Of a DNA stretch of 64,000 nucleotides, positions 5,471 to 21,083 are shown one piece after another; within the stretch, counting starts at the first letter, position 1; each line of letters begins with the position of its first letter. The stretch covers positions 904,093 through 968,092 of the forward strand of contig JADJEI010000013.1 in NCBI GenBank assembly GCA_016709155.1. The letters are read 5' to 3'. Position numbers and translations under genes: made by a program. Below the pieces are notes generated by a model. It did no database searches. It was not told where the DNA came from and was given only the letters and a program-made list of their open reading frames with translations. This DNA comes from Ignavibacteriales bacterium. GTDB taxonomy: Bacteria; Bacteroidota; Ignavibacteria; Ignavibacteriales; Ignavibacteriaceae.

Positions 5471-6337
5471 ATGAAAATCGGTAAATATAAATTAAGTCTT
5501 TTTGTTAGCGGTTATTTTTCGTTAGACGGCGGCGCTATGTTTGGCATTATTCCTAAACCATTGTGGAGTAAAACAAATCCTACAGATGAGCAAAATCGAG
5601 TGAGACTTGCCACGAGGCATTTAATCCTTCAGTCTGATAACAGAAATATTATTATAGATACAGGAATGGGAAATAAATGGGATGATAAATCCAAAAGCAT
5701 TTACAATATTGACTCAACTCATGAACTTGAACATGAACTTGAAGATGAACTTGAACTTGAACCTGAACTCAATAACATATCCGCAGCCTCCATCACTGAT
5801 GTACTATTAACTCACCTTCATTTTGATCATACCGGTGGCTCAACAAAAATTGAAAACGGAAAATTGATTCCGACTTTTCCTAATGCAAAATACTATGTGC
5901 AGAAAAAAAATTATGATTGGGCAGTCAATCCATCCGATAGGGATAAGGGCAGCTACATAAAAGAGAATTTTGAACCTTTAATGAAGGAAGGCGTTCTCCA
6001 TTTTATTAATGGCGAAGAGCAGTTTGATGATGAAATTAGTTTCATACTCGTAAATGGTCATACTTTTTATCAACAGCTTATAAAAATATCTGATGGCGAC
6101 AATACTTTTCTCTTTGTATGCGATTTGCTGCCTTTTGCATCTCACATTCCCTTGCCATATATAATGGGCTACGACCTTCAACCGCTGGTGACGTTAAATG
6201 AAAAGAAAATAATATTAAAGCAGGCGGTGGATGAAAATTGGAAATTATTTTTCTACCATGATCCCGAAATTGCGTATGCGACTTTAATGCAAACTGATAA
6301 AGGCATTCGAGTGCAAGAAAAGTTCTCTGCTTTATGA
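5471..6337 (+). CDS. MBL-fold metallo-hydrolase
   Basis: HLHFDHTGG metal-binding motif. Contains an acidic HELEHELEDELELEPEL insert. Confidence 0.85.
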   Translation: MKIGKYKLSLFVSGYFSLDGGAMFGIIPKPLWSKTNPTDEQNRVRLATRHLILQSDNRNIIIDTGMGNKWDDKSKSIYNIDSTHELEHELEDELELEPELNNISAASITDVLLTHLHFDHTGGSTKIENGKLIPTFPNAKYYVQKKNYDWAVNPSDRDKGSYIKENFEPLMKEGVLHFINGEEQFDDEISFILVNGHTFYQQLIKISDGDNTFLFVCDLLPFASHIPLPYIMGYDLQPLVTLNEKKIILKQAVDENWKLFFYHDPEIAYATLMQTDKGIRVQEKFSAL

Positions 6338-6669
6338 GCATAAAAAATGATTTCTACAAAGTCTGTTCTATAAAAGAACTAAAAGAGGAAGTTGGCAAAA
6401 GATTTTTAGTCAACGATATTGATATCGCCGTGTTCAAAATAAAAGATGAAGTGTTTGCTGTTTCAAATAACTGCCCCCATCAGCATACACAAATGATTTA
6501 TGATGGACTGATAGAGGATAATTGTGTCGTTTGCCCGGCGCATGGCTGGATGTTCGATTTGAAAACCGGATGTCTGCCAACAGGCGCAAAAGGATTGAGA
6601 ACTTTCCCCGTTATCATTTCTGGCGATGATGTTTTTGTTAAAGTGGATCGGAAAGAATTAAACTGGTGA
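6334..6669 (+). CDS. Rieske [2Fe-2S] domain protein (NirD-like small subunit type)
   Basis: CPHQH ... CPAHGW Rieske ligand motifs. ATGA overlap with the upstream gene. Confidence 0.8.
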   Translation: MSIKNDFYKVCSIKELKEEVGKRFLVNDIDIAVFKIKDEVFAVSNNCPHQHTQMIYDGLIEDNCVVCPAHGWMFDLKTGCLPTGAKGLRTFPVIISGDDVFVKVDRKELNW

Positions 6670-7622
6670 ATGAAAATATCTCCCCCTTGCTGCCCGATCG
6701 TGTTACAAATGATGTTGTTATCAGCAAAGCTAAATCATTGGGCTTTAGTTTAGTTGGTTTTGCAGAAGTGGAATTGCTCACTAACGAAATTACAAACCTA
6801 AATGACTGGCTGAATCAAAATCATCAAGCTGGAATGAATTACATGCAAAAAAATTCTGATAAGCGTGAAGACATTTCTAAAATACTTCCTGATGCCAAAA
6901 GCGTTATTTCTCTCGGTATGAATTACTACACGAATAATCTGCATTCAAACCAAAAGGGGATGGGAAAAGTATCGCGCTACGCCTGGGGAAAGGATTATCA
7001 TCTCATTATCTGGGAAAAGCTGAATGAGTTTGAAAATTACCTTCAACAAATTGATAAAAAATTCAACTCTAAATCCTATGTTGATACTGGTCCTGTTATG
7101 GATAAAGCCTGGGCTGTTCGTTCCGGCATTGGATGGATGGGGAAGCACTCAAACATTATCAATCGTGAATATGGCAGTTGGTTCTTCATCGCAAATATAA
7201 TTTGTAATCAGGAATTTATTTACTCGGAGCCGATACCTGATTTCTGCGGCGAGTGCACTGCCTGCATTGATGCCTGTCCCACCGATGCAATCATTCAGAA
7301 TTATGTTGTGGATGCGAACAAATGTATTTCATATTTAACCATTGAAAATAAAGGCAGCATTGATACATCTTTCAAAGATAAATTTGATAACTGGCTTTTC
7401 GGATGTGATATTTGTCAGGATGTTTGTCCGTGGAATATTAAATTTGCTCAGGAAACTTCTTTAAAAGAATTTCAACCCGCAGATGGCAACGGAGAAATAG
7501 AATTGAATAGCATTTTGGAAATGAGCGAAGAAGATTTTAAAAAAAGATTTTCAAGCAGCCCGATAAGTCGTGCAAAGCTAAAAGGACTAAAACGTAATGC
7601 TGAATTTTTAAACGATATATAA
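6666..7622 (+). CDS. queG: tRNA epoxyqueuosine(34) reductase
   Basis: GTG start. SRYAWGKDYH, DTGPVMDKAWA..GIGWMGKH, CGxCxACIDACPT and GCDICQDVCPWN motifs. Confidence 0.9.
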   Translation: MNENISPLLPDRVTNDVVISKAKSLGFSLVGFAEVELLTNEITNLNDWLNQNHQAGMNYMQKNSDKREDISKILPDAKSVISLGMNYYTNNLHSNQKGMGKVSRYAWGKDYHLIIWEKLNEFENYLQQIDKKFNSKSYVDTGPVMDKAWAVRSGIGWMGKHSNIINREYGSWFFIANIICNQEFIYSEPIPDFCGECTACIDACPTDAIIQNYVVDANKCISYLTIENKGSIDTSFKDKFDNWLFGCDICQDVCPWNIKFAQETSLKEFQPADGNGEIELNSILEMSEEDFKKRFSSSPISRAKLKGLKRNAEFLNDI

Positions 7623-7711
7623 AAATCTTTTTAATAATGATTTGAAACTATAAACATTAATTTGAATCTAACCATCAATCATAAAAAATATTTTAATCAT
7701 CAGGAGAAATA

Positions 7712-8659
7712 ATGTCGAACAATCATCACAAAGTAATAATAATTGGTTCGGGTCCATCAGGTTTTACAGCCGCCTTATATACGGCACGCGCCGAATTAAA
7801 GCCCGTAGTTTTTGAAGGAATGCAGCCCGGCGGACAGTTAACTATTACAACCGAAGTTGAAAACTATCCCGGCTTCGAAAAAGGAATTATGGGTCCGGAA
7901 CTTATGGACGTTATGCGTAAGCAAGCCCACCGCTTTGGTGCAGTTAGTATCTATAAAGAAGTAACATCAGTGGATTTTTCAAGACGACCTTTCGTAATCA
8001 AAACTTACGATGATCTCTATACTGCCGATTCGGTTATTGTTTCAACGGGTGCTTCTGCAAGACTGCTTGGATTGGAAAGTGAAACAAAATATATGGGCTA
8101 TGGTGTTTCTGCCTGTGCTACGTGTGATGGATTTTTCTTTAAAGGATTAAAAGTAATTGTTGTAGGTGGTGGTGATACTGCAATGGAGGAGGCTAACTTC
8201 CTCACAAAGTTTGCAAGCGAAGTGACTATCATTCACAGGCGTAATGAATTCCGCGCATCAAAAATTATGTATGATCGTGCAAAGAAAAATTCCAAAATAA
8301 AATTGCTCACCAACGAAGTGGTTAAAGAAGTACTTGGCAAAGAAGAAAACGGCAAGAAAGTGATGACGGGAGTTCTTCTCGAAGACACGAAAGATCACGC
8401 TACCACCACCCTCGAAGCAGATGGATTGTTCATCGGTATCGGACATAAACCAAACACGGAATTATTTAAGGGGGTGCTTGATATGGATGAGAACGGTTAC
8501 CTGAAAGTTCAGCCCGGCTCGACTTATACAAACATTCCAGGTGTCTTTGCCGCCGGAGATGTCGCTGACCATAAATATCGCCAAGCCGTCACCGCCGCCG
8601 GTACAGGCTGCATGGCTGCCCTCGATTGCGAGCGCTGGCTGGAAGCACAAGAAGCTTAA
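7712..8659 (+). CDS. trxB: thioredoxin-disulfide reductase
   Basis: GSGPSG FAD motif, redox-active CATCDG, GGGDTAMEEA NADPH motif. Confidence 0.95.
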   Translation: MSNNHHKVIIIGSGPSGFTAALYTARAELKPVVFEGMQPGGQLTITTEVENYPGFEKGIMGPELMDVMRKQAHRFGAVSIYKEVTSVDFSRRPFVIKTYDDLYTADSVIVSTGASARLLGLESETKYMGYGVSACATCDGFFFKGLKVIVVGGGDTAMEEANFLTKFASEVTIIHRRNEFRASKIMYDRAKKNSKIKLLTNEVVKEVLGKEENGKKVMTGVLLEDTKDHATTTLEADGLFIGIGHKPNTELFKGVLDMDENGYLKVQPGSTYTNIPGVFAAGDVADHKYRQAVTAAGTGCMAALDCERWLEAQEA

Positions 8660-8732: not shown

Positions 8733-8800
8733 AAGGCTGTTCAGAAATGGACAGCCTTTTTTACTTTTTAATTGACAACTTTAATAAATTTCTTTAAGTT
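8733..8800 (+). promoter_or_regulatory. terminator hairpin (GGCTGT..ACAGCC + T-run) followed by TTGACA-N17-TAAGTT promoter; copy 1 of a 4-copy module
   Basis: TTGACA 8772..8777, TAAGTT 8795..8800, 17-nt spacer. Near-identical modules at 10688, 12443 and 15148. Confidence 0.6.
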
Positions 8801-8885
8801 GTGATCAGTCTTATAATCATTGCGATTATCTGAATTATTTTGTTTCTTAATTAACCCAATCATCATCAATTAAAGGAGTCTTTAT

Positions 8886-10631
8886 ATGAGGTATAATATT
8901 CAGTTTAACCTGCGGACAGTTTTTTATGTCCTCTTTCTGTTTCTCTTGCTTCCGATATTCTCAATTGCACAGACAACACAATTACCATATCACATCAAAC
9001 CATATTCAATGGAGTCTGGAGTGTTTAATGGTAATTTCGAGATCGAGGCTACTGAGAATATTGCATTTGATGGCGTTGTGCAAGTTGCAGATGCCCCCTG
9101 GTTAAAATTGACATTTAGTAGTGCCAATCTTGGTGAAGATAGTTATTTAATACTTCGTTCCGTACTGGATGGCAAGTGGCAAAGACTCAATGCTGTTGCT
9201 TTAGAGCAGTGGCAAAACTCAAGCGCATTTTTTAATGGGGATGCTGTTGAAATAGAATTACATGTTGCCGATGATGATAAAGGTGTGTACGTGAACATCG
9301 CCGATATCATAGTTGGTGAACAGGTACAGGAATATGGTGTAGAAAGTCAATGCGGTCCCACAGATGATCGAGTAGCTTCTTCAGATGATAGAGCCTGCAG
9401 ATTATTAAATATTGGATGTACAGCGTGGTTGATCACTAATGGAAAACTTGTTTCGGCAGGACATTGTGTGTCTTCAAATTCATTGTTAAATACTCTTGAA
9501 TTTAATGTTCCTCCTTCCTTAGCAAATGGAACATTGCAGCATCCCGGGCCTGAAGATCAATATGCAGTAAACACTGCTACAAAAGTTTTTTCAAATGGTG
9601 GAATTGGAAATGATTGGGGAGTATTTGAAGCTTTTCCGAATTCAAATACAGGTTTAACACCATTGCAGGCACAAGGTGTAGCTTTCACCGTTGTTCAAAA
9701 TTTGGGACCGAGCACAATTAGAATAACCGGTTATGGAGTTGATGGTGGCACAGCAAATCAAACGCAGCAAACATCAATAGGGCCAAACGCCGGTTCATCA
9801 GGAACTACCATGCGATATGTGTGCGATACTGAAGGTGGTAATTCCGGCAGTCCCATAATTGATGAAGCTACCGGCAATTCGGTGGGGGTTCATACAAATG
9901 GTGGGTGTACGACAGGTGGTTCCGGCAGTAACTCTGGCACGAGTGCTTTTAATACTGCTTTCTGGAATGCGCTTAATGCAGGCAGTACTAATCCAAATGT
10001 AACTTGTACTATCACACTCAATCCCACATCAGGGAATGGAACACTCGCTTACACTATGTCCATCACAAACAACGAAGCCACAAATCAAGCTGCTACCGTT
10101 TGGGTAGTGGTAACAGGACCAAATGGATTTAACCAGACAATTTTCAATCGGACTATGAACCTGAAGTCGAACAGAACACTGAATAGATCTAGAAATTATA
10201 CTATCCCTGTTTCTGATCTCGGAGCATTTACATTTACTATAAATGTTGGAACTAATCCAACTCCTATCTGGGATACGGATGCGAAGATTTATACTAAAAC
10301 ATCTCTTGAAAAACAGATTGTTGAATCAGCAGAAAACTTAACTTCAAATCCTGAAAACATGACATTGATCGGTAATTACCCCAACCCTTTCAACCCGACA
10401 ACAAACATTAAATATGCCTTAAACGAAGACGCAAGTGTTTCAATTAAGATATACAATTCTTTGGGGCAGGAAGTTGCAACACTCGTTGATGGCTTTGCAT
10501 CAGCAGGTTATTACGAGGCTGTTTGGGATGGAAGAAATGAATTTGGTGATCTGGTCTCCAGCGGAATTTATTTTTATAGAATGACCACAGGCAATTTTGT
10601 ACAAGTTAAAAAGATGTTACTGAATAAATAG
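8886..10631 (+). CDS. secreted trypsin-like (S1) serine peptidase with T9SS C-terminal sorting domain
   Basis: Signal peptide. Triad contexts SAGHCV, GNDWGVF, GGNSGSPI. C-terminal NYPNPFNPTTNIKY...GIYFYRM tail. Confidence 0.8.
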   Translation: MRYNIQFNLRTVFYVLFLFLLLPIFSIAQTTQLPYHIKPYSMESGVFNGNFEIEATENIAFDGVVQVADAPWLKLTFSSANLGEDSYLILRSVLDGKWQRLNAVALEQWQNSSAFFNGDAVEIELHVADDDKGVYVNIADIIVGEQVQEYGVESQCGPTDDRVASSDDRACRLLNIGCTAWLITNGKLVSAGHCVSSNSLLNTLEFNVPPSLANGTLQHPGPEDQYAVNTATKVFSNGGIGNDWGVFEAFPNSNTGLTPLQAQGVAFTVVQNLGPSTIRITGYGVDGGTANQTQQTSIGPNAGSSGTTMRYVCDTEGGNSGSPIIDEATGNSVGVHTNGGCTTGGSGSNSGTSAFNTAFWNALNAGSTNPNVTCTITLNPTSGNGTLAYTMSITNNEATNQAATVWVVVTGPNGFNQTIFNRTMNLKSNRTLNRSRNYTIPVSDLGAFTFTINVGTNPTPIWDTDAKIYTKTSLEKQIVESAENLTSNPENMTLIGNYPNPFNPTTNIKYALNEDASVSIKIYNSLGQEVATLVDGFASAGYYEAVWDGRNEFGDLVSSGIYFYRMTTGNFVQVKKMLLNK

Positions 10632-10687
10632 TTCCATCTTAAAAAAGAGGTCGTCTTTTCAAAAGATGACATCTTTGATTTTTGACA

Positions 10688-10751
10688 AAGGCTGTTCAGC
10701 AATGGGCAGCCTTTTTTATTAGTTGACAATAGCAATTTTTATCCTTAAGTT
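10688..10751 (+). promoter_or_regulatory. terminator + TTGACA-N17-TAAGTT promoter module, copy 2
   Basis: AAGGCTGTTCAGCAATGGGCAGCCTTTTTT, then TTGACA 10723..10728 and TAAGTT 10746..10751. Confidence 0.6.
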
Positions 10752-10780
10752 ACAAACAAAAATATTTAGGGATAAAAAAA

Positions 10781-12043
10781 ATGACAGTAATAAATCTTCT
10801 GTTCAAAAATTCTCGGCCCCTAAAGTATTTTATCTTTAGTCTTAGTTGTGTTGTTTTTGCAGTGATGTTGACAAGCTGCGAGCAAAACCCCACCGCCCCA
10901 AATGAACCGCCCAAACCCCCCGGCTACCAGGAAGATATTTACTGGCCCAGCCTTGCCGATAGCCCCTGGCCTATGAACCATCACGATCCGCAGAATACGG
11001 GGAGGAGTAAAATCAGTGGTTTCATAGTTGGTAACATATTGGCAGAATTAGAGGAATATTTTATTCAAACCGGTATTTCGGTATCACCTGATTCATCATT
11101 TTATTTGGTTACTTCATATCCGAGCGTTATTCGTTCATTCACAAAGGAAGGAATTGAAAAATGGAATATACAATTAGGAGATTATGAATCCTTTGTAACT
11201 CCTGCCATATCCGCAAGAGGGTATATTTATTCCATAGCCGCACAAGAAGGGTTACTATATCAAATTGATCTTACTGGGAAAATCAAATGGATATATCAAG
11301 ATCCTTATCCAATTTGGCAAAGTGGTATAAGTATTGGATTAGACGAAACAATTTATTTTGTTAATTCAAACAATGAACTTAAAGCGATTGATTTATATGG
11401 GAATTTAATTTGGAGTGTTAGTAATCAAAAGTTCGGAACCAGTACTCAGTCATTTACTGTTTTCTCTCCGGATGGAAAAACTCTATATATTCCGGGAGAA
11501 AATACTGTATCCTTAGTAGCATTTGACATTATAAGCCAACAGATTAAATGGGAAATAGGGCAAACTCCATTACTTGCGCCTCCAGTAATAAATTCAGGGG
11601 GGGATGCTTATATTTTCTGTTCGATTGAAGACATTAACGAATCACGTCCTTCATTGTTTTGCATTTCTGAAAAGGGTGAAATACACTGGGATTATGATTA
11701 CCAAAAAGATCATTCAATTCCCATAATCAATAATTCGGGGGGAGCATTGGATAGATACGGTAATTTTTATTTTGCCGAAGATACCTTATACAAAGTGGAT
11801 TATAATGGAAATCAGAAATGGAAAAAAAGTTTGGATGTTACAAACTGGACTCCAATTATTGTAGATGTCAATGACAATATATTCGTGACAACGATAAATA
11901 AAATATATAAATTTGATCAATCGGGGAATCAAATTACTACAACTGATTTGAATACAATTACCGGAGGATCACCCGCGATTTCTTATGGAGGAAAGGTCTT
12001 AATACCATCATGGAAATCGAAGGAAATCTTTATAATAAATTAA
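10781..12043 (+). CDS. lipoprotein, PQQ/BamB-like beta-propeller repeat protein (cassette gene A1)
   Basis: Lipobox LTSC. First ~77 aa nearly identical to A2/A3. Repeated G.IY/W-containing blade-like units. Confidence 0.7.
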   Translation: MTVINLLFKNSRPLKYFIFSLSCVVFAVMLTSCEQNPTAPNEPPKPPGYQEDIYWPSLADSPWPMNHHDPQNTGRSKISGFIVGNILAELEEYFIQTGISVSPDSSFYLVTSYPSVIRSFTKEGIEKWNIQLGDYESFVTPAISARGYIYSIAAQEGLLYQIDLTGKIKWIYQDPYPIWQSGISIGLDETIYFVNSNNELKAIDLYGNLIWSVSNQKFGTSTQSFTVFSPDGKTLYIPGENTVSLVAFDIISQQIKWEIGQTPLLAPPVINSGGDAYIFCSIEDINESRPSLFCISEKGEIHWDYDYQKDHSIPIINNSGGALDRYGNFYFAEDTLYKVDYNGNQKWKKSLDVTNWTPIIVDVNDNIFVTTINKIYKFDQSGNQITTTDLNTITGGSPAISYGGKVLIPSWKSKEIFIIN

Positions 12044-12053
12044 AGGCATCTAA

Positions 12054-12476
12054 ATGAAATTAATTTTGTTGTTCTTTTTTATGTTAATAAATTTATCGGC
12101 TCAAGAATTCCTACCCCCTCCAGTAGAAATCTATGTTTGGCAGCAGGATAATATATATTCTGCTCCAGTTGAATATCACTTCGATGCTCAATCAATCGTA
12201 TGAGACCAAAATCATAACATCAATATTATAGACCCCGTAGATGGTGATGATATTATTATTACAAAGTTTTTCATATAAGGTAATATGTTGACTTCAAGTA
12301 ACGGAGGATGGCATTTTATTATATCTAATAGCGGCGGTAGCAGTTCACAAGGCTATGAATACCCTGTTATAGGGTATGGATTATATAAGGTATACACAAT
12401 ACAAAGTCCCGAATATTATTTTGAATATAATCAATTGTTCCAGGGCTGTTCAGAAATGGGCAGCCTTTTTTATTAG
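12054..12476 (+). pseudogene. truncated remnant of a cassette B-type (T9SS-tailed) gene
   Basis: 49-codon ORF with signal peptide (MKLILLFFFMLINLSAQ) and VEIYVWQQ matching B2/B3 LEIFTLTT/VEIFIIIQ, then stops. 12285..12476 keeps the GLYKVY..YYFEYN motif and runs into the terminator. Confidence 0.6.
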
Positions 12477-12505
12477 TTGACATTTCATTTCTTTGTGCTT
12501 AAGTT
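12443..12505 (+). promoter_or_regulatory. terminator + TTGACA-N17-TAAGTT promoter module, copy 3
   Basis: GGGCTGTTCAGAAATGGGCAGCCTTTTTT, then TTGACA 12477..12482 and TAAGTT 12500..12505. Confidence 0.6.
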
Positions 12506-12533
12506 TCAAACAAAAATATTTAGGGATAAAAAT

Positions 12534-13850
12534 ATGACAGTAAAAAATCATCTGTTCAAAAACTCTCGGCCCCTAAAGTATTTTATCTTTAGTCTTAGTT
12601 GTGTTGTTTTTGCAGTGATATTAACAAGCTGCGAACAAAACCCCACCGCCCCAAACGAACCGCCAAAACCTTACGGCTACCAGGAAGATATTTACTGGCC
12701 CAGCCTTGCAGATAGCCCCTGGCCTATGAATCATCACGATCCTCAGAGTACAGGCAGGAGTAAATATTTTGGTCCTAGTATCGGTACAATTGAGTGGATT
12801 GTTGATAGCGTAATCATTATGAGTTCGATCTCCATTGGGATAGACTCGTCAATATATTTACCATCACAATCAAGTGCTCATAACGGCTTTTTTTCGTTCA
12901 GCCCCAAAGGTGAATTAAATTGGAAACTTAGTGTACCTGAGGATATTATATTTTCATATGATGTCTCAACACCATTAGCGGCAGCAGATGGCACTATCTA
13001 TTTTACAGGTGGCTTATATGGTGCAATTTATGCAATTAATCCCAATGGTAGTATTAAATGGGAATTTCATCCTGAGAGTTCAATTTATCAAACAGGAATA
13101 AATTTAGGTTTAGATGGAACTATTTATTTTATAACTGTGAATAAAGAGTTGTTTGCTCTCGACCATAATGGGGGTTTAAAATGGACTTTCAAAAATGATG
13201 ATTTCTTCAGCGGTCTTGGTTCCGTCCTTTCTTTTTCTCCTGATGGTAGGACCCTGTATATACTTGGTAAATCAATTTCGTTGTATTCATTTGATATCCA
13301 ATCTCAATCTATAAATTGGACATTCGGAACCGAAACTCTGTATGCTGCACCAATTGTTGATGATGAGGGAAATATATATATACAATCTGCCTCACCGGAT
13401 TTCAATAATGGCATCAACTCTCTATTTTGTTTGAAACCGGATGGAAGTGTCAAATGGTCATTCGCGCACAACAATCCTCAAATGGATCAATCCTATGGCT
13501 ATGCAGAAGGAACAATTGATAAGTTGGGTAATATTTATTTCGCCTTTGATACTCTTTATTCTTTAAATTATTTGGGTCAGTTAAACTGGAAGATCCCTTT
13601 GAATGGTTTTACAGCGTCACCTTTAATATGCGATGCAAATGGAACAGTTTATATTAGCGTTTCTACTGTGGAATCGTATGCACTTAGTGAAATTATTGCG
13701 GTAGATAGTGATGGCAATTTTTTATGGAAAGTACCGATATCATCAATTTCTCCACTTGGAGATGTACTTGGTCTTTCACCAGCACTAAATAATGATAGAA
13801 GACTTTTTGTTCCAACATTTAAACAATATAGATTTTTTGTAATTAAATAA
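12534..13850 (+). CDS. lipoprotein, PQQ/BamB-like beta-propeller repeat protein (cassette gene A2)
   Basis: ATG at 12534 is homologous to the A1 start (MTVKNHLFKNSRPLKYF...LTSCEQNP). The ORF-track TTG at 12477 is the promoter -35 box. Confidence 0.75.
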   Translation: MTVKNHLFKNSRPLKYFIFSLSCVVFAVILTSCEQNPTAPNEPPKPYGYQEDIYWPSLADSPWPMNHHDPQSTGRSKYFGPSIGTIEWIVDSVIIMSSISIGIDSSIYLPSQSSAHNGFFSFSPKGELNWKLSVPEDIIFSYDVSTPLAAADGTIYFTGGLYGAIYAINPNGSIKWEFHPESSIYQTGINLGLDGTIYFITVNKELFALDHNGGLKWTFKNDDFFSGLGSVLSFSPDGRTLYILGKSISLYSFDIQSQSINWTFGTETLYAAPIVDDEGNIYIQSASPDFNNGINSLFCLKPDGSVKWSFAHNNPQMDQSYGYAEGTIDKLGNIYFAFDTLYSLNYLGQLNWKIPLNGFTASPLICDANGTVYISVSTVESYALSEIIAVDSDGNFLWKVPISSISPLGDVLGLSPALNNDRRLFVPTFKQYRFFVIK

Positions 13851-13864
13851 TACAGGAGAGTGTG

Positions 13865-15066
13865 ATGTTTTTAAATTTCGATATTACCTGCTTGTTTTAT
13901 TGTTTGCCTCAACTTTTCAAATTCTATCACAAGAATCAGAATTTCAACTAGAAATCTTTACGCTTACAACTGGATTTGGAGAATATGATGTAACGCGATT
14001 CAGATTGGATCCTTTGGGTGAAGTCTATTGTACGGATAGTTATTCCAACTATTTTCACGTTCCTAACGAAAGGAATACCATAGCATTAGAAGAGGTTACA
14101 GGCAATAACAGCGGTGGATATTTAGGACTTCAAATATGCTTTAATGATGATTCTGATTATGGAAAATTTTGGTTAGGATTGTATAAATTTTCCATTCAAT
14201 ATTTTAATGGGGGTGAGTGGATTGATTATTTCCATTTTTATATAGACTATAGGGATTGTTGGTATGGTAGATCTGGAATTGGAGGCTGTAACTCGAGTGA
14301 TATTGTTATTAAATATGATAATAATCTTGGCAAAACTTTTTGGGCATACGGCATACCTACACCCAATACTCAGTATACTGAATTAACACAGAATGAAGTA
14401 TTGAATTGGTGGGAAGCTAATGAATGTGATTCACATTGTGTAGAAGATTTTGAATCTATAATATTTCCTCAGTTAGAAAATGTAATTATAAACCAGCAGA
14501 ACCATGTTCAATTAAACTGGTCGGAGCCCGATCCCGCTTATGATATTGTTACAAACTATCAAGTTTGGAGAATGATGTTTTCGGGTAGATATGCCGGTCA
14601 GTTCAAATTGCGCACAACTGTAAGCTCAGGTGTTACTTCTTACACAGATTTATCACTCGATATTACTCAAAACCAGAATGGTGAGTTACTCCAATACAAA
14701 GTTGTTGCGCTGTTCCAAAGCAAACCTGATGAGCCATCGAATATTCAAAAAATAAGATTTTATTTTAACGAGGAAAAAAATGTTTTCGAAGTTAATCAGA
14801 CTATGGATTTTGAATTATCTCAAAATATTCCCAACCCCTTCAACCCAAGCACAAGTATTAGCTATTCAATTCCTGAAAATGCTTTTGTTACTTTGAAGAT
14901 TTATGATGTACTTGGAAATGAAGTTGAGGTTTTAATTAACGAGCAGAAAGAGTCGGGCAATTATCAAATAGACTTTAATGCAAGCGAACTTTCCAGCGGA
15001 ATTTATTATTACACATTAACCGCAGGAAATTTTACAAGCACGAAGAAGATGATCCTGGTGAAGTAA
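13865..15066 (+). CDS. secreted protein with FN3-like region and T9SS C-terminal sorting domain (cassette gene B2); start-region frameshift
   Basis: ATG 13865 plus one extra T in T5 13868..13872 gives signal peptide MFFKFRYYLLVLLFASTFQILSQ. The ORF track starts at TTG 13900. C-terminal NIPNPFNPSTSISY... tail. Confidence 0.65.
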
Positions 15067-15069
15067 AAG

Positions 15070-15122
15070 CCTCACCCGAACCCCGCTAAGCGGGGCAAGC
15101 CCCTCTCCAAAGGAGAGGGGAG
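15070..15122. repeat. GC-rich double-hairpin REP-like element
   Basis: CCCCGCtaaGCGGGG (15081..15095) and CCCCTCTCCaaaGGAGAGGGG (15100..15120). Confidence 0.6.
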
Positions 15123-15147
15123 TCTTTTGAATATAATTAATTGTTCT

Positions 15148-15211
15148 AAGGCTGCTCAGAAATGGGCAGCCTTTTTTATTAGTTGACAATGGCAAGCTTT
15201 ATCCATAAATT
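15148..15211 (+). promoter_or_regulatory. terminator + TTGACA-N17-TAAATT promoter module, copy 4
   Basis: AAGGCTGCTCAGAAATGGGCAGCCTTTTTT, then TTGACA 15183..15188 and TAAATT 15206..15211. Confidence 0.6.
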
Positions 15212-15240
15212 ACAAACAAAAATATTTAAGGGATAAAAAA

Positions 15241-16487
15241 ATGACAGCAATAAAGCTTCTGTTCAAAAATCTCGGCCCCTAAAGTATTTTATCTTTAGAC
15301 TTACTTGTGTTGTATTTGCAGTGATGTTGACAAGCTGCGAGCAAAACCCCACCGCCCCAAATGAACCGCCCAAACCCCCCGGCTATCAGGAAGATATTTA
15401 CTGGCCCAGCCTTGCCGGTAGCCCCTGGCCTATGGAACATCATGACCCACAAAATACTGGGCGAAGTAACATTGTAGGCCCAACCTTTGGTGTCATTGAA
15501 AAAATTATTGACGATGTTTTTTCAAATACTGGTATTGTCATTAATGGGGACTCAACTATTTATTTTGCTTGTCAGTACGAACTTAAAGCCTATTCATTCT
15601 TCGGTAATCTTAAATGGAAAATTTCATTTGCTTCAGAAACACTTTCAACCCCAATTATAGGAAATGATGGGACTATTTACGCATTATACTCCGACACGAT
15701 CAAAGCAATAAATCACAATGGTACTATAAAATGGGTGCTTCCAGTACATGCTAAAAATAGTGGAGGCATGAATATTGGGAGAGATGGTACACTGTATTTT
15801 TGTGATAGCGAGGAGCACACTCTTTATGCAGTAAGTAAGTACGGGAAACTATTATGGACAATGAATGACGAAAGAATGATGGGCTGGAACTCGCCAACAT
15901 TCTCTCCGGATGGTAATACGATATATTTACCTGGCAATCAAATATCTGTCGTCGCTATCGATATTGAGAACAAAAAAGTTAAATGGGAATTTGGTTCAAT
16001 AATTAGTGGCTCGGATTTCCTTGTTGATTCAGACGGAAATATATATTTATATACCGATCAATATGTCGATAATGAACATATATTCGGAATATACTCGCTC
16101 AATCAAAATGGTTTTATCCGATGGTATCATAGAGATATTAAAAATATTAATAGTGCTTTTACGATGGATGTGAATGGAAACTTAATTTATGGGGTTGATA
16201 CACTTCATTCTTTAAATTATAGCGGAAATCTAAATTGGAGTTTTCCTCTGAATGGATTTGTTGCCGCCAATTCCCTGGTGTGTGATTTTAATTCGAATAT
16301 TTATGCAATTTCCTCTGAATTATTTTCACAAGGATTCTCATTATTCTGTATTGATAAAGCAGGAATTCTAAAATATTCTATTATTTCTACATTCACCGGG
16401 TGGATCACTAATTCTTCTCCGGCAATAGCATTTAATAGACTAATCATACCCACTGAAGAATCAAATATTGCATATATCATAAAATGA
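15241..16487 (+). pseudogene. beta-propeller lipoprotein A3 with 1-nt deletion in the signal-peptide region
   Basis: ATG 15241 reads MTAIKLLFKNLGP*. Relative to A1/A2 (AAAAATTCTCGG) one T is missing at ~15270. The remainder (15321..16487) is intact and homologous. Confidence 0.7.
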
Positions 16488-16523
16488 AGAAAAAGTAAAA
16501 TGAAAAAAATAAAAAATAATTAA

Positions 16524-17687
16524 GATAATTTTACCCAAAGTCTTGCTTGGCCAGTCGACGTCGAGATTTTTATAATCATTCAAGGTTTGAATGCCGGCGA
16601 AAGTGTAGGATTCAGAATGGTTGCTCAAGGGGCAGTATGGAAAAGTTTAGGTCTTTGGGAGTTTCAATTAACTAATGAATATCATGATGTTTATTATCCA
16701 GGCGAATGTTTGATCACTGGCAATACGATCGGTAATTGGGCTTACGGCAATAATATTGCCGGTGGAAATTCCTTTAATCAACATACTATTGGTTATTCAT
16801 TGTATCGTTTAGAAGTTTATAATAACTATTGTGAATTTTTCCCAACCGTTTATTATTTTGATTACAGAGATTGTGATTATCCATTACGCACTAGGCCTGA
16901 TGGGACACCCTCACCTAATAGTAATAGCACAGGAGGAAATGACATTTGGATATTATACGATGCCCCCACTACTACCTGTTCTCTCAGTATAGATGGTGCA
17001 TTAACATAGCAATTGTTAAATAATAATGCTTATTCTAGTTATTGGGATATCAAAAACAAAAGTACACATTCGCCTTATACCAATTATTTCCCAAGCTACT
17101 GGCAAAATTGCCTTGCTCTAATTCCGTCATCGGGTAATCACCCCCATCTTGTTTGGGGACCTCATCCTACTTTTAATACTACCCAATACAGAATTTACAG
17201 AGCAGTTAGTAACTACCCCAGAAATCCTCAAGTTCTGAATTATTCCTTGATCACAACCGTAAGCTCTTCAACCTTTGATTATGTAGATTATGCTGTTCTA
17301 ATTATTCCAGGCTATCAATATGCTTATTATTATGTAGTTGGATGGGATGGAACTGTTCAATCGGATAAAACAAACTATGTAAGTACACAAGCAGTATTTT
17401 ATAAACAATCAGCTGAGATACCTAACGAATTTAGTATATCCCAAAATTACCCCAACCCATTCAACCCAAGCACAAGCATCAGCTATTCAATTCCGGAAAA
17501 TGCTTTTGTTACATTGAAGATTTATGATGTGCTTGGAAATGAAGTTGAGGCGTTAATAAACGAGCAGAAAGAGCCGGGTAATTATCAAATAGATTTTAAT
17601 GCAAGCGAACTTTCCAGTGGAATATATTATTATGCATTGACAGCAGGTAACTTTATAAGCACGAAAAAGATGTCGCTGATTAAATAA
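16524..17687 (+). pseudogene. cassette gene B3: T9SS-tailed protein lacking a signal peptide and carrying an in-frame TAG
   Basis: ORFs 16587..17009 and 17013..17687 share one frame, separated by TAG 17007..17009. The upstream ATG 16501 is out of frame and stops after 7 codons. The C-terminal tail is close to B2 at DNA level. Confidence 0.65.
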
Positions 17688-17718
17688 CGCCTTCATTTAT
17701 ACAGAAGTTCGTCGCCAG

Positions 17719-17757
17719 AAAAACCTCCAGGGTTTAGGAAAACTCTGGAGGTTTTTT
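17719..17757 (+). terminator. rho-independent terminator
   Basis: AAACCTCCAG ggtttaggaaaact CTGGAGGTTTTTT. Confidence 0.75.
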
Positions 17758-17879
17758 ATCGGAAGTCATCAAAGGTGTGCTAATTCTCCTTCCCAACCGC
17801 GGAATTTATCTTAACTGTGTCCTTTTTTATCTTATCCGTACTCTAATATTCGTTTTTTGTACGGTTTAGTACTTTCTGG

Positions 17880-18226
17880 GTGTCAAAGATGTTATCAAAT
17901 CTAAATAATTTAATAAATTATATGAATAATAATATGAAATATCTAAATAATATTATCTATTATCTAAATATTATTAAGAATTATTAAAATAATAAATAGT
18001 ATTATTTATATAAATCTATATATTACTTGAATAATAATATATTTAACTTATATATTATTTATTATTATTTGTATAATAGAATAAAATATTTGAGTAATAA
18101 TTAGAATTACTTAAGTATTTTTTATTATACTTCAAATAAAATATTAAATAATTTAGATAATACTTAATATTATCTGCCAGTATTTATAAATTGTGTGCGT
18201 TAATACTAAACTAATGAGGATTTTTT
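17880..18226. other. extreme A+T tract upstream of 18227..18859
   Basis: Hand count gives 5, 4 and 7 G+C in the three 60-nt lines 17941..18120. TCTAAATA recurs three times direct and once inverted. No ORF. Confidence 0.8.
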
Positions 18227-18859
18227 ATGCCAAAGCAGGACTATATACCAAAATTAAAGCCCAAACTTTTCACGTGGGTTAAATCTTTTCTGACAAACTT
18301 TCCCACGCTTGCCCCCGGGCTTGGAATTTCTGCCCCCTCCGTTACCGATTTAACAAACCGTCTTAACGATTACCTGACCGCTTACACCGAAATGATAAGT
18401 CTGCGTGCAACCTACCACGCCAAAGTCGCCGAAGTGAAATTGAAACGCAAGCACGCCATCTCCGAAGTGGGTGGGGTAAGGTCAATTGTGAAAATTATGA
18501 AGGCGAGCAGTGCCTACACCCTTGCAGTAGGAGAAAGTTTACAAGTCGAGCTTGATGCGCCTGTGCCGGATAGGAACAATATGCAGCCGCGCTTTAAGGC
18601 AGAGGTGGATGCAAATAGGATTGTAAAATTATTTTATAAGAAAGGAATTGCCAGCGGAGTGAATGCGTATTGCCGACGCGAAGGCGAAAAAGATTTTATT
18701 TTTATCGGGACCGATAGTATAAGTCCTATGCTTGATCCCCGCCCCAACCTAACCGATCAGCCTGAGGAAAGAGAGTATTATTTAATTTATGTAATTGACG
18801 ATGTCCAGGTTGGAAAGAAATCGCCCATCCTAAAGGTTACGGTTGACAAGAAGGGGTAG
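18227..18859 (+). CDS. hypothetical protein, paralogue of 35778..36389 (helical N-half, beta-rich C-terminal module)
   Basis: Clean ORF, visibly higher G+C than neighbours. Shares KDxIPx start and C-terminal RRxGE...EREY..YVIxDVxVG...V motif with 35778..36389. Confidence 0.7.
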   Translation: MPKQDYIPKLKPKLFTWVKSFLTNFPTLAPGLGISAPSVTDLTNRLNDYLTAYTEMISLRATYHAKVAEVKLKRKHAISEVGGVRSIVKIMKASSAYTLAVGESLQVELDAPVPDRNNMQPRFKAEVDANRIVKLFYKKGIASGVNAYCRREGEKDFIFIGTDSISPMLDPRPNLTDQPEEREYYLIYVIDDVQVGKKSPILKVTVDKKG

Positions 18860-18942: not shown

Positions 18943-19293
18943 TCATTCAACTTGTTTGTTCATTTTCCTCGAAAGAATATTTGCAAGAATAAACCCCATC
19001 CCTGAAAATGTGAACAAAGAGAACGGCACCCAGTATTCTTTTGTTGTATTATCTTCAAGCATCAATCCAAAGCCTAAACCAAGCCCGAAGAATAGGATCA
19101 CAATACCTATCTTCATCATTACATAAGGGTCTTTCTTTTCGCGGAAATATTCCCTCACATCCTCGGCTGATAAACCTTTGTCAATCAATGCTTGCTTTTC
19201 TTTAGAACGAAGATAAAATACAGTGACCAAAACCAATCCAGTTACCACTGCAAATACAATCGGTATAAAAACCGCAATTACTTCTTCTCTCAT
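18943..19293 (-). CDS. small membrane protein (3 predicted TM helices)
   Basis: Hydrophobic segments VIAVFIPIVFAVVTGLVLVTVFYL, IGIVILFFGLGLGFGLML, FSLFTFSGMGFILANIL. Divergent from the ECF sigma gene. Confidence 0.6.
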   Translation of the reverse strand: MREEVIAVFIPIVFAVVTGLVLVTVFYLRSKEKQALIDKGLSAEDVREYFREKKDPYVMMKIGIVILFFGLGLGFGLMLEDNTTKEYWVPFSLFTFSGMGFILANILSRKMNKQVE

Positions 19294-19507
19294 TTTATTG
19301 CTCCTTATTTTAAGTTAAATAAATTTTTATTTCTTCTGATAGATAAGACAAAGGATAAAGCAAACAGGTTACAAATTATTTTTTTACTCGTTCTTTAGTT
19401 AAGGGCTAAAGTCACTTCTGGTAAACCTTCTTTCCTTCCTATCAAGGAAAGAAGATTGTATATTTGTCGTTGTAACCGGTCATAGTTTCTATAAGTCTAA
19501 TAGGAAA

Positions 19508-20074
19508 ATGAAAAACATCACCGACATCGAAGTAATAGAATCCGTCCTTAAAGGAAATCAAAACGACTTTGCTTTATTGATAGATAGATATAAAAACAAA
19601 GCCTTCTCAATGCTGAAAAGAATGCTGCGTAACGATTCTGATGCTGAAGAGGTTTTGCAGGATTGTTTTTTGAAAGCATACAAGGCGTTAAATAATTTCA
19701 ATGGTGATGCAAAATTTTCAACCTGGTTTTACAGGATAGTTTATAACACAGCGTTGACAAAACTATCTTCAAAGAAAAGAAAAATAGAATCAGAGATGAC
19801 TTCGATAGATGAGCATTATGATATAGCGGATAACAGTATAAATATTTCAGAACAGTTCAGTGATTCAACCGAACTGATAAACAAAATGATTGAGAAACTT
19901 CCACCATCCTATTCAACAGTGATAAATTTATTTTATATGGAAGAAATGAGCTGTGAAGAAATAAGCAAAGTGATGAATACTTCTGTGTCAAATGTAAAAG
20001 TAATGCTGCACCGTTCAAGAAGCGCTCTTAAGGATATCATCATAAAAAAGAATTTAATACCGGAGTTGTTGTAA
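19508..20074 (+). CDS. ECF-type RNA polymerase sigma-70 family factor
   Basis: Region 2 (FSTWFYRIVYNTAL) and region 4 (EEMSCEEISKVMNTSVSNVKVMLHRSR) signatures. Confidence 0.9.
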   Translation: MKNITDIEVIESVLKGNQNDFALLIDRYKNKAFSMLKRMLRNDSDAEEVLQDCFLKAYKALNNFNGDAKFSTWFYRIVYNTALTKLSSKKRKIESEMTSIDEHYDIADNSINISEQFSDSTELINKMIEKLPPSYSTVINLFYMEEMSCEEISKVMNTSVSNVKVMLHRSRSALKDIIIKKNLIPELL

Positions 20075-20592
20075 TGAAAGTAACAGAAGAAATATTGAAC
20101 AAATATATTGACGGCGAACTAGAACCGGAAGTATTGGAAGAGTTGAATGAACAACTCGTAAAATCAAAAGAAGACTTGGAAAGATTACGCGCTCTACAAG
20201 CACTTCATAGAAGTCTTTCAAAAATAAAACCTGAAGAAACGCCAGCGGATTTTACACGTGCCGTAATGTTCAGGATAAATAAAAAGAGTAAGACGGGCAA
20301 TGAACAGAAGTTTTTTATAGGAATTATATCGTCCGTATTCGTTTCGTTTTCGATAGCAATAGCGGGCTATGTTTTATACTTGATTGCATCCACTTCAACT
20401 ACAACAAATCAAATGGGGGAGGCGTTTACGATTGTTAAATCTTACACTCAAATTGTTACCAATCCCCTGGAGAAATTATTCAGTGGAATTAATATGACAA
20501 TAATAGGTTCAATACTTTCTATGACAATACTCGGAAGTGCATATTATTTCTTCGAGACTTTTAAGAGAATTAAAAATAATATCACTTCTTAA
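20074..20592 (+). CDS. putative anti-sigma factor (membrane-anchored)
   Basis: Start overlaps the sigma gene stop. N-terminal YIDGELEPE motif typical of anti-sigma factors, followed by TM segments. Confidence 0.6.
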   Translation: MKVTEEILNKYIDGELEPEVLEELNEQLVKSKEDLERLRALQALHRSLSKIKPEETPADFTRAVMFRINKKSKTGNEQKFFIGIISSVFVSFSIAIAGYVLYLIASTSTTTNQMGEAFTIVKSYTQIVTNPLEKLFSGINMTIIGSILSMTILGSAYYFFETFKRIKNNITS

Positions 20593-20756
20593 AAAACCGA
20601 ATATTATTTCAACTCAGTGGTTGTTTATGTCCGTTAGTTATCGAATATCAGCGTTATTACTTGTAACTGCCTCTCTTCTTTTTCAGAGAGATTGATTCCG
20701 CCCTCCTAAATTTACTTTCCTGTTTCGTATATTTGAAATAAAAAAAGGAAACTAAA

Positions 20757-21083
20757 ATGTTGGTAACAACCACACCATCAGTCGAAGGTAAAAGAGTAAA
20801 AAAATATTTAGGACTCGTTAGCGGCGAAGCGATAATGGGTGCAAACATATTTAAGGATTTTTTTGCCGGCATACGTGATATCGTGGGGGGTAGGTCAGTC
20901 GCTTATGAAAAAGAATTAAGAAAAGCCAAAGAACTCGCAATCGAAGAAATGATACAAGCATCTGTAGCACTCGGCGGCAATGCAGTAATTGGCGTTGATC
21001 TTGATTATGAAACAATAGGCGGGGGCAGCGGAAATATGTTAATGGTCAGCGCATCCGGCACTGCCGTAGAGATAGAAGAATAA
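20757..21083 (+). CDS. YbjQ/UPF0145 family protein
   Basis: [29 protein letters not shown]...[13 protein letters not shown] pattern. Confidence 0.85.

Follow-up and report, generated by a model that had tools for sequence, protein, structure and literature searches.

The stretch analysed here (the window) is 64,000 nucleotides (nt) of contig C13, positions 904093–968092, of G000, a 4.0-Mb genome in 14 contigs with an estimated contamination of 2.4%. Downstream of the gene trxB it carries a tandem array of cassettes, in which a gene for a β-propeller lipoprotein (A) is followed by a gene for a cargo protein of the type IX secretion system (T9SS) (B). With a probability of about 80%, this array is one locus of a family of paralogous two-gene surface cassettes whose ends have been homogenised and which have been shuffled by homologous recombination. 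We observed the anatomy of the cassettes, concerted evolution of the 5′ part of the A genes (the head), mosaic divergence between relatives, a cassette order that differs between genomes, and frequent gene decay.

The cassettes of G000 are designated W1–W3 in the window array, X1 and X2 in a second array, and Y and Z on contig C1. They were compared with G001, a metagenome-assembled genome (MAG) of a sister species in Ignavibacteriaceae, which was assembled by SPAdes and is the sole congener of G000 within the genome collection. Further relatives came from JGI contigs and from MEGAHIT contigs of different ENA samples. The array and its left flank are laid out as follows.

7712–8659, forward strand: trxB, directly 5′ of the protease gene and the cassette array.
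8733–8762, forward strand: family terminator hairpin, copy 0, the trxB terminator; a TTGACA-like box lies 3′ of it, before the protease gene.
8886–10631, forward strand: trypsin-like serine protease with a T9SS tail (Pfam Trypsin_2, Trypsin and Por_Secre_tail).
10687–11011, forward strand: junction/head block 1, with hairpin, TTGACA-N17-TAAGTT promoter-like site, leader and A1 codons 1–77.
10781–12043, forward strand: A1, lipoprotein with a PQQ-like eight-bladed β-propeller; core orthologous to G059_c.
12054–12440, forward strand: B1 remnant, with an intact signal peptide followed by two stops, ending in ...YYFEY at the next junction block.
12419–12764, forward strand: junction/head block 2.
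12534–13850, forward strand: A2, intact propeller lipoprotein, from open reading frame (ORF), Pfam and model.
13865–15066, forward strand: B2, T9SS cargo; a variable N-domain is followed by an FN3-like module and a family-type C-terminal domain (CTD), and the ATG at 13865 is out of frame.
14801–15240, forward strand: junction block 3, with the family-type CTD tail of B2, palindrome, hairpin, promoter-like site and leader.
15241–16487, forward strand: A3, gene for a propeller lipoprotein; 1 nt is deleted within the signal peptide, and the core is orthologous to G032_a.
16500–17687, forward strand: B3, decayed T9SS cargo gene with a family-type CTD tail at 17422–17687.
17100–18859, forward strand: right-hand end common to arrays W and X, 85% identical to locus X (C13:547–553 kb).

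The terminator hairpin with its T-run occurs at 8733, 10687, 12442 and 15148, following trxB and the protease gene as well, and copy 0 at 8733 matches the junction blocks over 42 nt at 85–90% identity. Codons 1–77 of A1 encode the signal peptide, the lipobox LTSC, a linker and the YWPSLADSPWPM..TGRS motif. Junction block 3 includes a GC-rich palindromic element (15070–15122) and the terminator hairpin (15148–15173), and the common right-hand end runs from the C-terminal half of B3 through a terminator and an AT-rich tract to a gene for a protein of 210 amino acids (aa). Because the A stop lies 10–14 nt before the B start in every cassette and a strong hairpin with a T-run is found within the cassette only after B, each cassette appears to be an operon.

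The conserved ends and the cores were then compared. The head blocks at 10775–11011, 12528–12764 and 15234–15470 share 100%, 92% and 85% identity, respectively, and the blocks upstream of them at 10688, 12442 and 15148 share 74–89%. Taken together, the terminator, promoter, leader and head form a conserved block of ~320 nt at 85–92% identity among the three window units, whose cores are ~45% identical. In a sliding comparison of the seven genomic copies, identity stayed at 86–93% over ~10670–10990 and then fell sharply to 35–50%. The original prediction, made from the letters of the stretch, had described three tandem units with conserved ends and diverged cores, and both the repeat families and the sliding-window comparison bear this out: self-comparison of the array shows conserved flanks with the drop in identity at ~10990, and divergence is not uniform along the genes. 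Pfam likewise confirmed the gene types it had named, with Trypsin_2 and Por_Secre_tail in the protease, PQQ_2 in A1–A3 and Por_Secre_tail in B2 and B3. Some of its statements needed correction. An A gene and a B gene are present in cassettes 2 and 3, but cassette 1 holds only a B remnant of 390 nt with stops, fused to junction block 2. The B tails (14801–15066 and 17422–17687) are indeed shared, but they are 85% identical (88.6% by BLAST), and "near-identical" was an overstatement. The CTD of the protease is of a generic type and differs from the family-type tail in the tail comparison.

The family is not confined to the window array. G000 contains seven A–B cassettes at four loci, and its seven head copies (three in W, two in X 365 kb away, and one each at Y and Z) are 89–92% identical. 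Five family-type CTD tails were found in G000. One of them sits on a 757-aa BNR/Asp-box T9SS protein unrelated to B, encoded upstream of Y (C1 ~748.7–751.0 kb) with a standard junction block and then an A gene downstream of it; homogenised tails thus also occur outside the B genes. Among the 121 Ignavibacteriales genomes searched, 27 have the A family, in several of them in multiple copies.

To place the copies, we built a phylogeny of 22 cores from six genera with IQ-TREE. Six of the seven G000 paralogues grouped with orthologues from other genera: W3 with G032_a (96/94), X1 with G059_a (97/81), Y with G059_g (100/96), Z with G008_a and G059_f/h (100/99) and, more weakly, W1 with G059_c (91/83) and W2 with G022_a (90/77). 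The W1–G059_c pairing is backed by its neighbour, an intact ~397-aa B next door to the W1 orthologue in G059 that is a relative of the B1 remnant. On this tree the genera clustered no more than they did after their labels were shuffled. Mean head identity was 0.80 within genera and 0.29 between them, and the corresponding core identities were 0.31 and 0.32. G059, a complete genome with eight copies, has a head of its own, at ~80% nucleotide identity from −10 to +140 and then ~40%. From the core tree, these identities and the G059 pattern, the paralogues appear to be older than the genera, with heads homogenised within lineages as gene conversion predicts. One segment thus groups by genome and the rest by orthologue, the pattern of segmental concerted evolution. 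The gene-conversion reading offered in the original prediction gains support from the interleaving of genera in the core tree and the genus-specific heads.

The head itself consists of layers. The proportions of synonymous (pS) and nonsynonymous (pN) differences, counted by the Nei–Gojobori method across nine A copies, climb along the gene from the start of the head to the core. Codons 1–32 have a pS of 0.11 and a pN of 0.08; codons 33–50, a pS of 0.30 within G000 and 0.48 versus G001, with a pN of 0.02; codons 51–77, a pS of 0.54–0.68 and a pN of ~0.1; and the A cores, a pS of 0.72 and a pN of 0.49. Overall, pN/pS between orthologues is ~0.3, compared with 0.05–0.15 in neighbouring housekeeping genes. 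From the promoter-like site through the leader to the signal peptide and linker, conservation holds for the nucleotides themselves, regardless of codon position. In four other genera, A homologues keep PPGYQ(E/Q/K)DIPWPSLADSPWPM..DPQ.TGRS while their signal peptides are quite different. Because the YWPSLADSPWPM...TGRS motif is kept across genera despite these differing signal peptides, it reflects an old protein-level constraint, conserved by selection and not by conversion. The ~77 codons are conserved as predicted, but the last ~27 of them are held by purifying selection on the protein, and conversion does not account for that part.

Exchange of cassettes between genomes was traced through B2. 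A search with B2 found an intact homologue, P0001, on 11 MEGAHIT contigs from different ENA samples, and the homology between window and contig spans exactly 12444–15469, from junction block to junction block. The neighbours of A2–B2 differ from contig to contig. On L041, the cassette is preceded by an A of a new type (423 aa) and its 414-aa B, and followed by a G1b-type A paired with a B of 501 aa; on L043, a G1b-type cassette is followed by an X2-type A; and on L039, A2–B2 is joined directly to an X2-type cassette and a locus-X flank that is 86–87% identical to G000. Divergence within this single cassette is mosaic. Between the window and L041 it amounts to 4.5% in the 5′ two-thirds of A2 and ~17% in the 3′ third, 0% over ~700 nt of the B2 core (~13857–14574), 5% in the B2 tail, and 7–18% in the junction and head. 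Similarly, X1 and its 95%-identical orthologue on L036 differ by ~3% in the core, by 7–13% in the junction and head, and by up to 23% in the C-terminal half of B. L035 follows the Y locus of G000 at 88% identity as far as the head extends and then continues into an X2-type core. After trxB, G001 carries a single cassette of another type, compared with three in G000, without the protease and the 210-aa gene. A Sawyer-type runs test on the distinct junction blocks gave a sum of squared condensed fragments (SSCF) of 11688 versus 6995 (p < 0.0005), and the three G000 blocks alone were also significant. A-core and B-core pairings were kept together wherever both were visible, and A–B adjacency is retained in other genera. 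Cassettes have thus been rearranged between genomes with breakpoints in a conserved stretch; the differing neighbours and loci, together with homology that ends at junction blocks, also favour the cassette exchange that had been suggested alongside gene conversion.

The flanks of the array differ in their distance from the sister species (L031). The pS is 0.46–0.63 on the left (window 5471–8659: MBL, Rieske, queG and trxB) and 0.20–0.28 on the right (18943–21083: a membrane protein, a sigma factor, an anti-sigma factor and a YbjQ-like gene). Because pS differs between its two sides, a recombination boundary at the array is suggested.

An alternative is that purifying selection alone keeps the ends alike, acting on a common regulator-binding promoter, a leader RNA, the signal peptide and the T9SS tag, while the cores drift without any recombination. 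Several of our data fit it: codons 51–77 are under protein-level selection, with pS near saturation, pN at ~0.1 and a motif kept across genera; pN/pS in the B tail is ~0.1; no copy, those of G001 included, departs from the common sequence of the leader or of a 23-nt block that codes for part of the signal peptide; and a test for recombination within the head, given below, was null. Selection of this kind, however, cannot give genus-specific heads while the cores follow cross-genus orthology, and in other genera the signal peptides that export this protein are quite different. Nor does it account for close orthologues that are more diverged in the junction than in the core, or for divergence that leaps between 0% and 17% within a single cassette. 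A leader RNA element was evaluated and rejected as unsupported. RNAalifold proposed a 13-bp helix between the leader AAAAAUAUUUAGGG, which includes the Shine–Dalgarno site, and codons 13–17 (CCCCUAAAGUAUUUU); the helix would sequester this site, and none of its pairs varies. The z-score of its minimum free energy is only −0.9 to −1.0, covariation is absent, and more upstream context shifts the fold; the helix has neither a counterpart in the four other genera nor a match in Rfam. We regard selection alone as unlikely.

The recombination reading leads to the following model. The cores would be old lineages predating the split of the Ignavibacteriales genera. A junction block of ~640 nt, composed of the family CTD, terminator, promoter-like site, leader and signal peptide with linker, would be kept alike within a lineage by homologous recombination in the form of gene conversion. 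As portable homology, the same block could promote unequal crossing-over, with gain and loss of cassettes that may have left the B1 remnant behind; it could also allow cassettes to move between loci and to be replaced by DNA of related lineages. Such recombination would presumably depend on RecA. B, with its variable, β-rich orphan N-domain, would be exported through Sec and the T9SS.

Several observations weigh against this model. A pairwise homoplasy index (PHI)-type test on the 321-nt head alone (46 informative sites, 45% incompatible pairs) showed no distance effect (p 0.33–0.55), and recurrent mutation at the few free sites could contribute to the incompatibilities. In codons 1–32, pS is 0.095 between G000 and G001 and 0.126 within G000, compared with 0.2–0.63 in neighbouring housekeeping genes. 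Intragenomic conversion alone is insufficient for these codons, which need exchange between lineages or nucleotide-level constraint in addition; a genus-wide pool of exchanging heads fits the identical B2 core found across an 87% background. The homopolymer frameshifts and the cassette order of G000 come from one assembly. Chimeric joins are conceivable in some of the contigs, but exact repeats shared by junctions reach no more than 53 nt, less than the k of 141 used in assembly. Finally, AlphaFold2 models of the B N-domain from seven sequences reached a predicted local distance difference test (pLDDT) score of only 30–40.

Gene decay is frequent in the family. In G000, 7 of the 14 A and B genes are broken, compared with at most 1 of ~22 syntenic non-family genes. 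A3 has a 1-nt deletion at ~15271 in the signal-peptide region and is intact from a GTG at 15321, but then lacks the signal peptide. B2 has T5 at ~13868 where the intact, 99%-identical P0001 implies T6; because of this change its ATG (13865) is out of frame, and the longest in-frame ORF begins at a TTG at 13900. B3 has a broken start (MKKIKNN followed by a stop) and an in-frame TAG at 17010–17012. Broken B genes also occur in G001, on the JGI contig L036 and on the ENA contigs L040 and L043; the decay thus goes with the family and cannot be put down to a single assembly. For annotators this means that half of the family's genes are pseudogenes, and that much of the "77-codon" conservation would reflect recombination history rather than function.

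We also considered whether the pattern could arise from assembly or binning, through collapsed or duplicated repeats or the polishing of a mixed-strain consensus. The genome is in 14 contigs with 2.4% contamination, repeat families are hard to assemble, and some of the lesions are frameshifts in homopolymers. On the other hand, the copies differ by 8–15% in the shared block and their cores are unrelated and unalignable as DNA, which rules out the assembly duplication that the original prediction had raised against itself. The same architecture is present in independent assemblies (G001, JGI contigs and ten ENA MEGAHIT contigs from different samples), and breakage is enriched in the family and affects B genes elsewhere. 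An artefact is extremely improbable.

Expression-site antigenic variation is known from systems such as pilE/pilS and vlsE. Programmed variation of this or a related kind could take the form of silent donors feeding one expression site, a site-specific recombinase, or slipped-strand switches. The conserved flanks around variable cores recall p44 (PMC1366493), and the lesions of B2, X2 and YB among the seven broken genes lie in homopolymers (T5/6, A4/5 and G5). These tracts are short, however, and several other lesions are nonsense substitutions or large truncations rather than reversible switches. A single expression site is absent: all seven G000 copies and their relatives, broken cassettes included, are each equipped with a promoter-like site, a leader and an ATG start codon. 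The cassettes are all co-oriented, no inverted repeats flank any of them, and no recombinase is adjacent, nor was a tyrosine recombinase (PF00589) match found on the contig near the arrays. The sole serine recombinase gene of G000, a resolvase (PF00239; C13:537703–538134), lies ~9 kb upstream of array X, with a two-component system between, and 370 kb from the window array. Programmed variation is accordingly considered very unlikely, and homologous recombination through the junction blocks remains the preferred explanation.

Protein A is a predicted outer-membrane lipoprotein with a conserved N-terminal segment of ~45 residues, modelled at low confidence, and an eight-bladed propeller. The three A genes scored 41.6, 42.1 and 34.0 bits with PQQ_2 (cut-off 27.6 bits), and the lipobox ...VFAVMLTS-C, at residues 30–33, is invariant in 16 of 16 aligned A copies, as expected of a lipoprotein. 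The AlphaFold2 model of A2 (pLDDT 77, predicted TM-score 0.76) had YxaL and BamB as its top natural matches in Foldseek (E 1e-12 to 1e-17, TM 0.6–0.68), so that the domain match and the fold agree on a PQQ-like propeller. A is not a BamB equivalog (TIGR03300, 17.6 versus 285 bits; NF008351, 13.3 versus 423 bits) and stays far below the cut-off of the NCBIfam PQQ dehydrogenases (19 versus 480 bits). A Velcro-strand role for the WPSLADSPWPM motif was considered but gained no support from the A2 model, in which residues 31–70 have a pLDDT below 50.

The B proteins carry a T9SS tail. Por_Secre_tail (PF18962, cut-off 27 bits) scored 44.8 bits in B2, 43.2 in B3 and 28.1 in the protease, and TIGR04183 scored 42.8 (cut-off 23). 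The T9SS machinery of G000 was judged from its PorU sortase (NF033707, 994 bits, cut-off 420; C13:1043416–1046718) and a count of more than 40 CTD-bearing ORFs. The B signal peptide is present in the intact relatives P0001 (MFFKFRYYLLVLLFAS..), XB2 and ZB and out of frame in B2 and B3 of the window. The signal peptides of P0001, XB2, YB and the L041 B genes end in ...S/A-Q (LSQE, FSQE, FAQN and YCQI), which resembles the "Q-rule" for signal peptidase I substrates in Bacteroidetes (PMC5837995). In B, a variable N-domain of ~170 aa, marked by a YxDYRDC signature, precedes one or two FN3-like modules and the family-specific CTD, and the CTD tail evolves at a pN/pS of ~0.1. The N-domain had no match in Pfam, NCBIfam or PDB sequences, even with a profile of 21 sequences; among 1.84 billion representative proteins it was found in 22 clusters at E ≤ 0.001. 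A and B are an uncharacterised pair, a propeller lipoprotein and a T9SS cargo with an orphan domain, both of which would be displayed at the cell surface, and the diversity of the cassettes may have an adaptive role.

It is possible, though doubtful, that the junction block serves as a recombinase-free "plug-and-play" adaptor that supplies the T9SS tag, terminator, promoter, leader and lipoprotein export head. An imported A–B core landing between two such blocks would then be expressed and exported at once, and these free-living bacteria would be trading a pan-genomic library of at least 11 cognate lipoprotein–cargo pairs. Such a library could provide variable adhesins, targets for phages or predators, or effector/guard pairs like potempin–KLIKK.

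The surroundings of the array yielded further observations. The 210-aa gene (window 17880–18859; C13 ~552.7–553.8 kb; L039:5050–6218) closes arrays W and X and that of L039 after an AT-rich tract and is missing at the one-cassette locus of G001. Its W and X copies are 85% identical as DNA, the L039 protein is 75% identical, and the gene has no Pfam or NCBIfam match. The GC-rich palindrome CCCCTCTCCAAAGGAGAGGGG (window 15100–15120) has 14 sites in G000 at up to one mismatch, compared with 0 for the reversed control; three of these sites are inside family junction blocks, and examples are at C13:550013 and C1:748647. It looks like a small dispersed element similar to repetitive extragenic palindromic (REP) sequences. 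A sigma-70-family (extracytoplasmic function-like) sigma factor and a putative anti-sigma membrane protein (window 19508–20592) are encoded directly downstream of the array in G000 and G001 alike. On L039, a PHO4-family phosphate transporter gene (8787–9914) lies between aroE and the next gene; it is not at that place in G000, where the best match, located elsewhere, is 64% identical in protein.

Recombination among genes with conserved ends and variable cores has been well studied in the surface-gene families of pathogens and rarely documented in free-living environmental bacteria. The mechanism proposed here is therefore familiar, while the gene family is uncharacterised. The phenomenon can be traced in public metagenomes, where old cores, genus-specific homogenised export and control sequences, and cassettes at differing loci are all visible. 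The propeller of A shares the eight-bladed PQQ-like fold of BamB (PDB 3prw), also a lipoprotein, and YxaL (7dxn), but A is multi-copy and paired with a T9SS cargo.

In Helicobacter pylori, babA/babB and homA/homB are paralogous outer-membrane protein genes that undergo segmental concerted evolution (PMC3960876). As in our family, one segment is more alike within a genome while others follow allelic or orthologous history, and several loci take part in intragenomic exchange. The H. pylori genes are single and homogenised at their 3′ end, whereas the present unit is a gene pair, and homogenisation extends from the 3′ CTD of one gene across the intergenic control region into the 5′ head of the following one. 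The host also differs, being a free-living uncultured member of Ignavibacteriaceae. The lpl cluster of Staphylococcus aureus consists of tandem lipoprotein genes in which a conserved stretch is the recombination site (Tsuru & Kobayashi 2008, PMC2568036). It resembles the present family in its tandem lipoprotein paralogues, its strain-specific arrangements and a unit of two adjacent ORFs with the intergenic region. The geometry is reversed: in lpl the conserved site lies in the middle of each ORF and the variable unit extends across the intergenic region, whereas here it is the conserved unit that crosses the intergenic region and the gene bodies that vary.

The likeness to Anaplasma p44/msp2 is looser. 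Both have many copies in which a variable core is set between conserved 5′ and 3′ ends, and truncated copies and fragments as apparent by-products of recombination. In p44/msp2, one expression locus is fed by promoterless silent copies (PMC1366493), whereas here every copy brings a promoter-like site and a start codon of its own.

The gene arrangement is closest to that of the KLIKK/potempin loci of Tannerella forsythia, where a lipoprotein inhibitor gene lies upstream of a T9SS peptidase gene (PMC4404884, PMC9890683). Both systems are two-gene arrays with an outer-membrane lipoprotein gene directly 5′ of a T9SS cargo gene, and in both the cargo bodies are dissimilar while the family-specific CTD is nearly identical. 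The likeness goes no further than this arrangement and the homogenised CTD. Peptidase activity is proven for the KLIKK cargos, whereas the N-domain of B has no recognisable catalytic family; potempins are mutually unrelated inhibitors of 98–132 aa, whereas the A proteins are homologous propellers of ~430 aa with a homogenised head. Because the arrangement mirrors the potempin–KLIKK loci, A may bind its cognate B at the cell surface, and the resemblance makes this a concrete and testable hypothesis.

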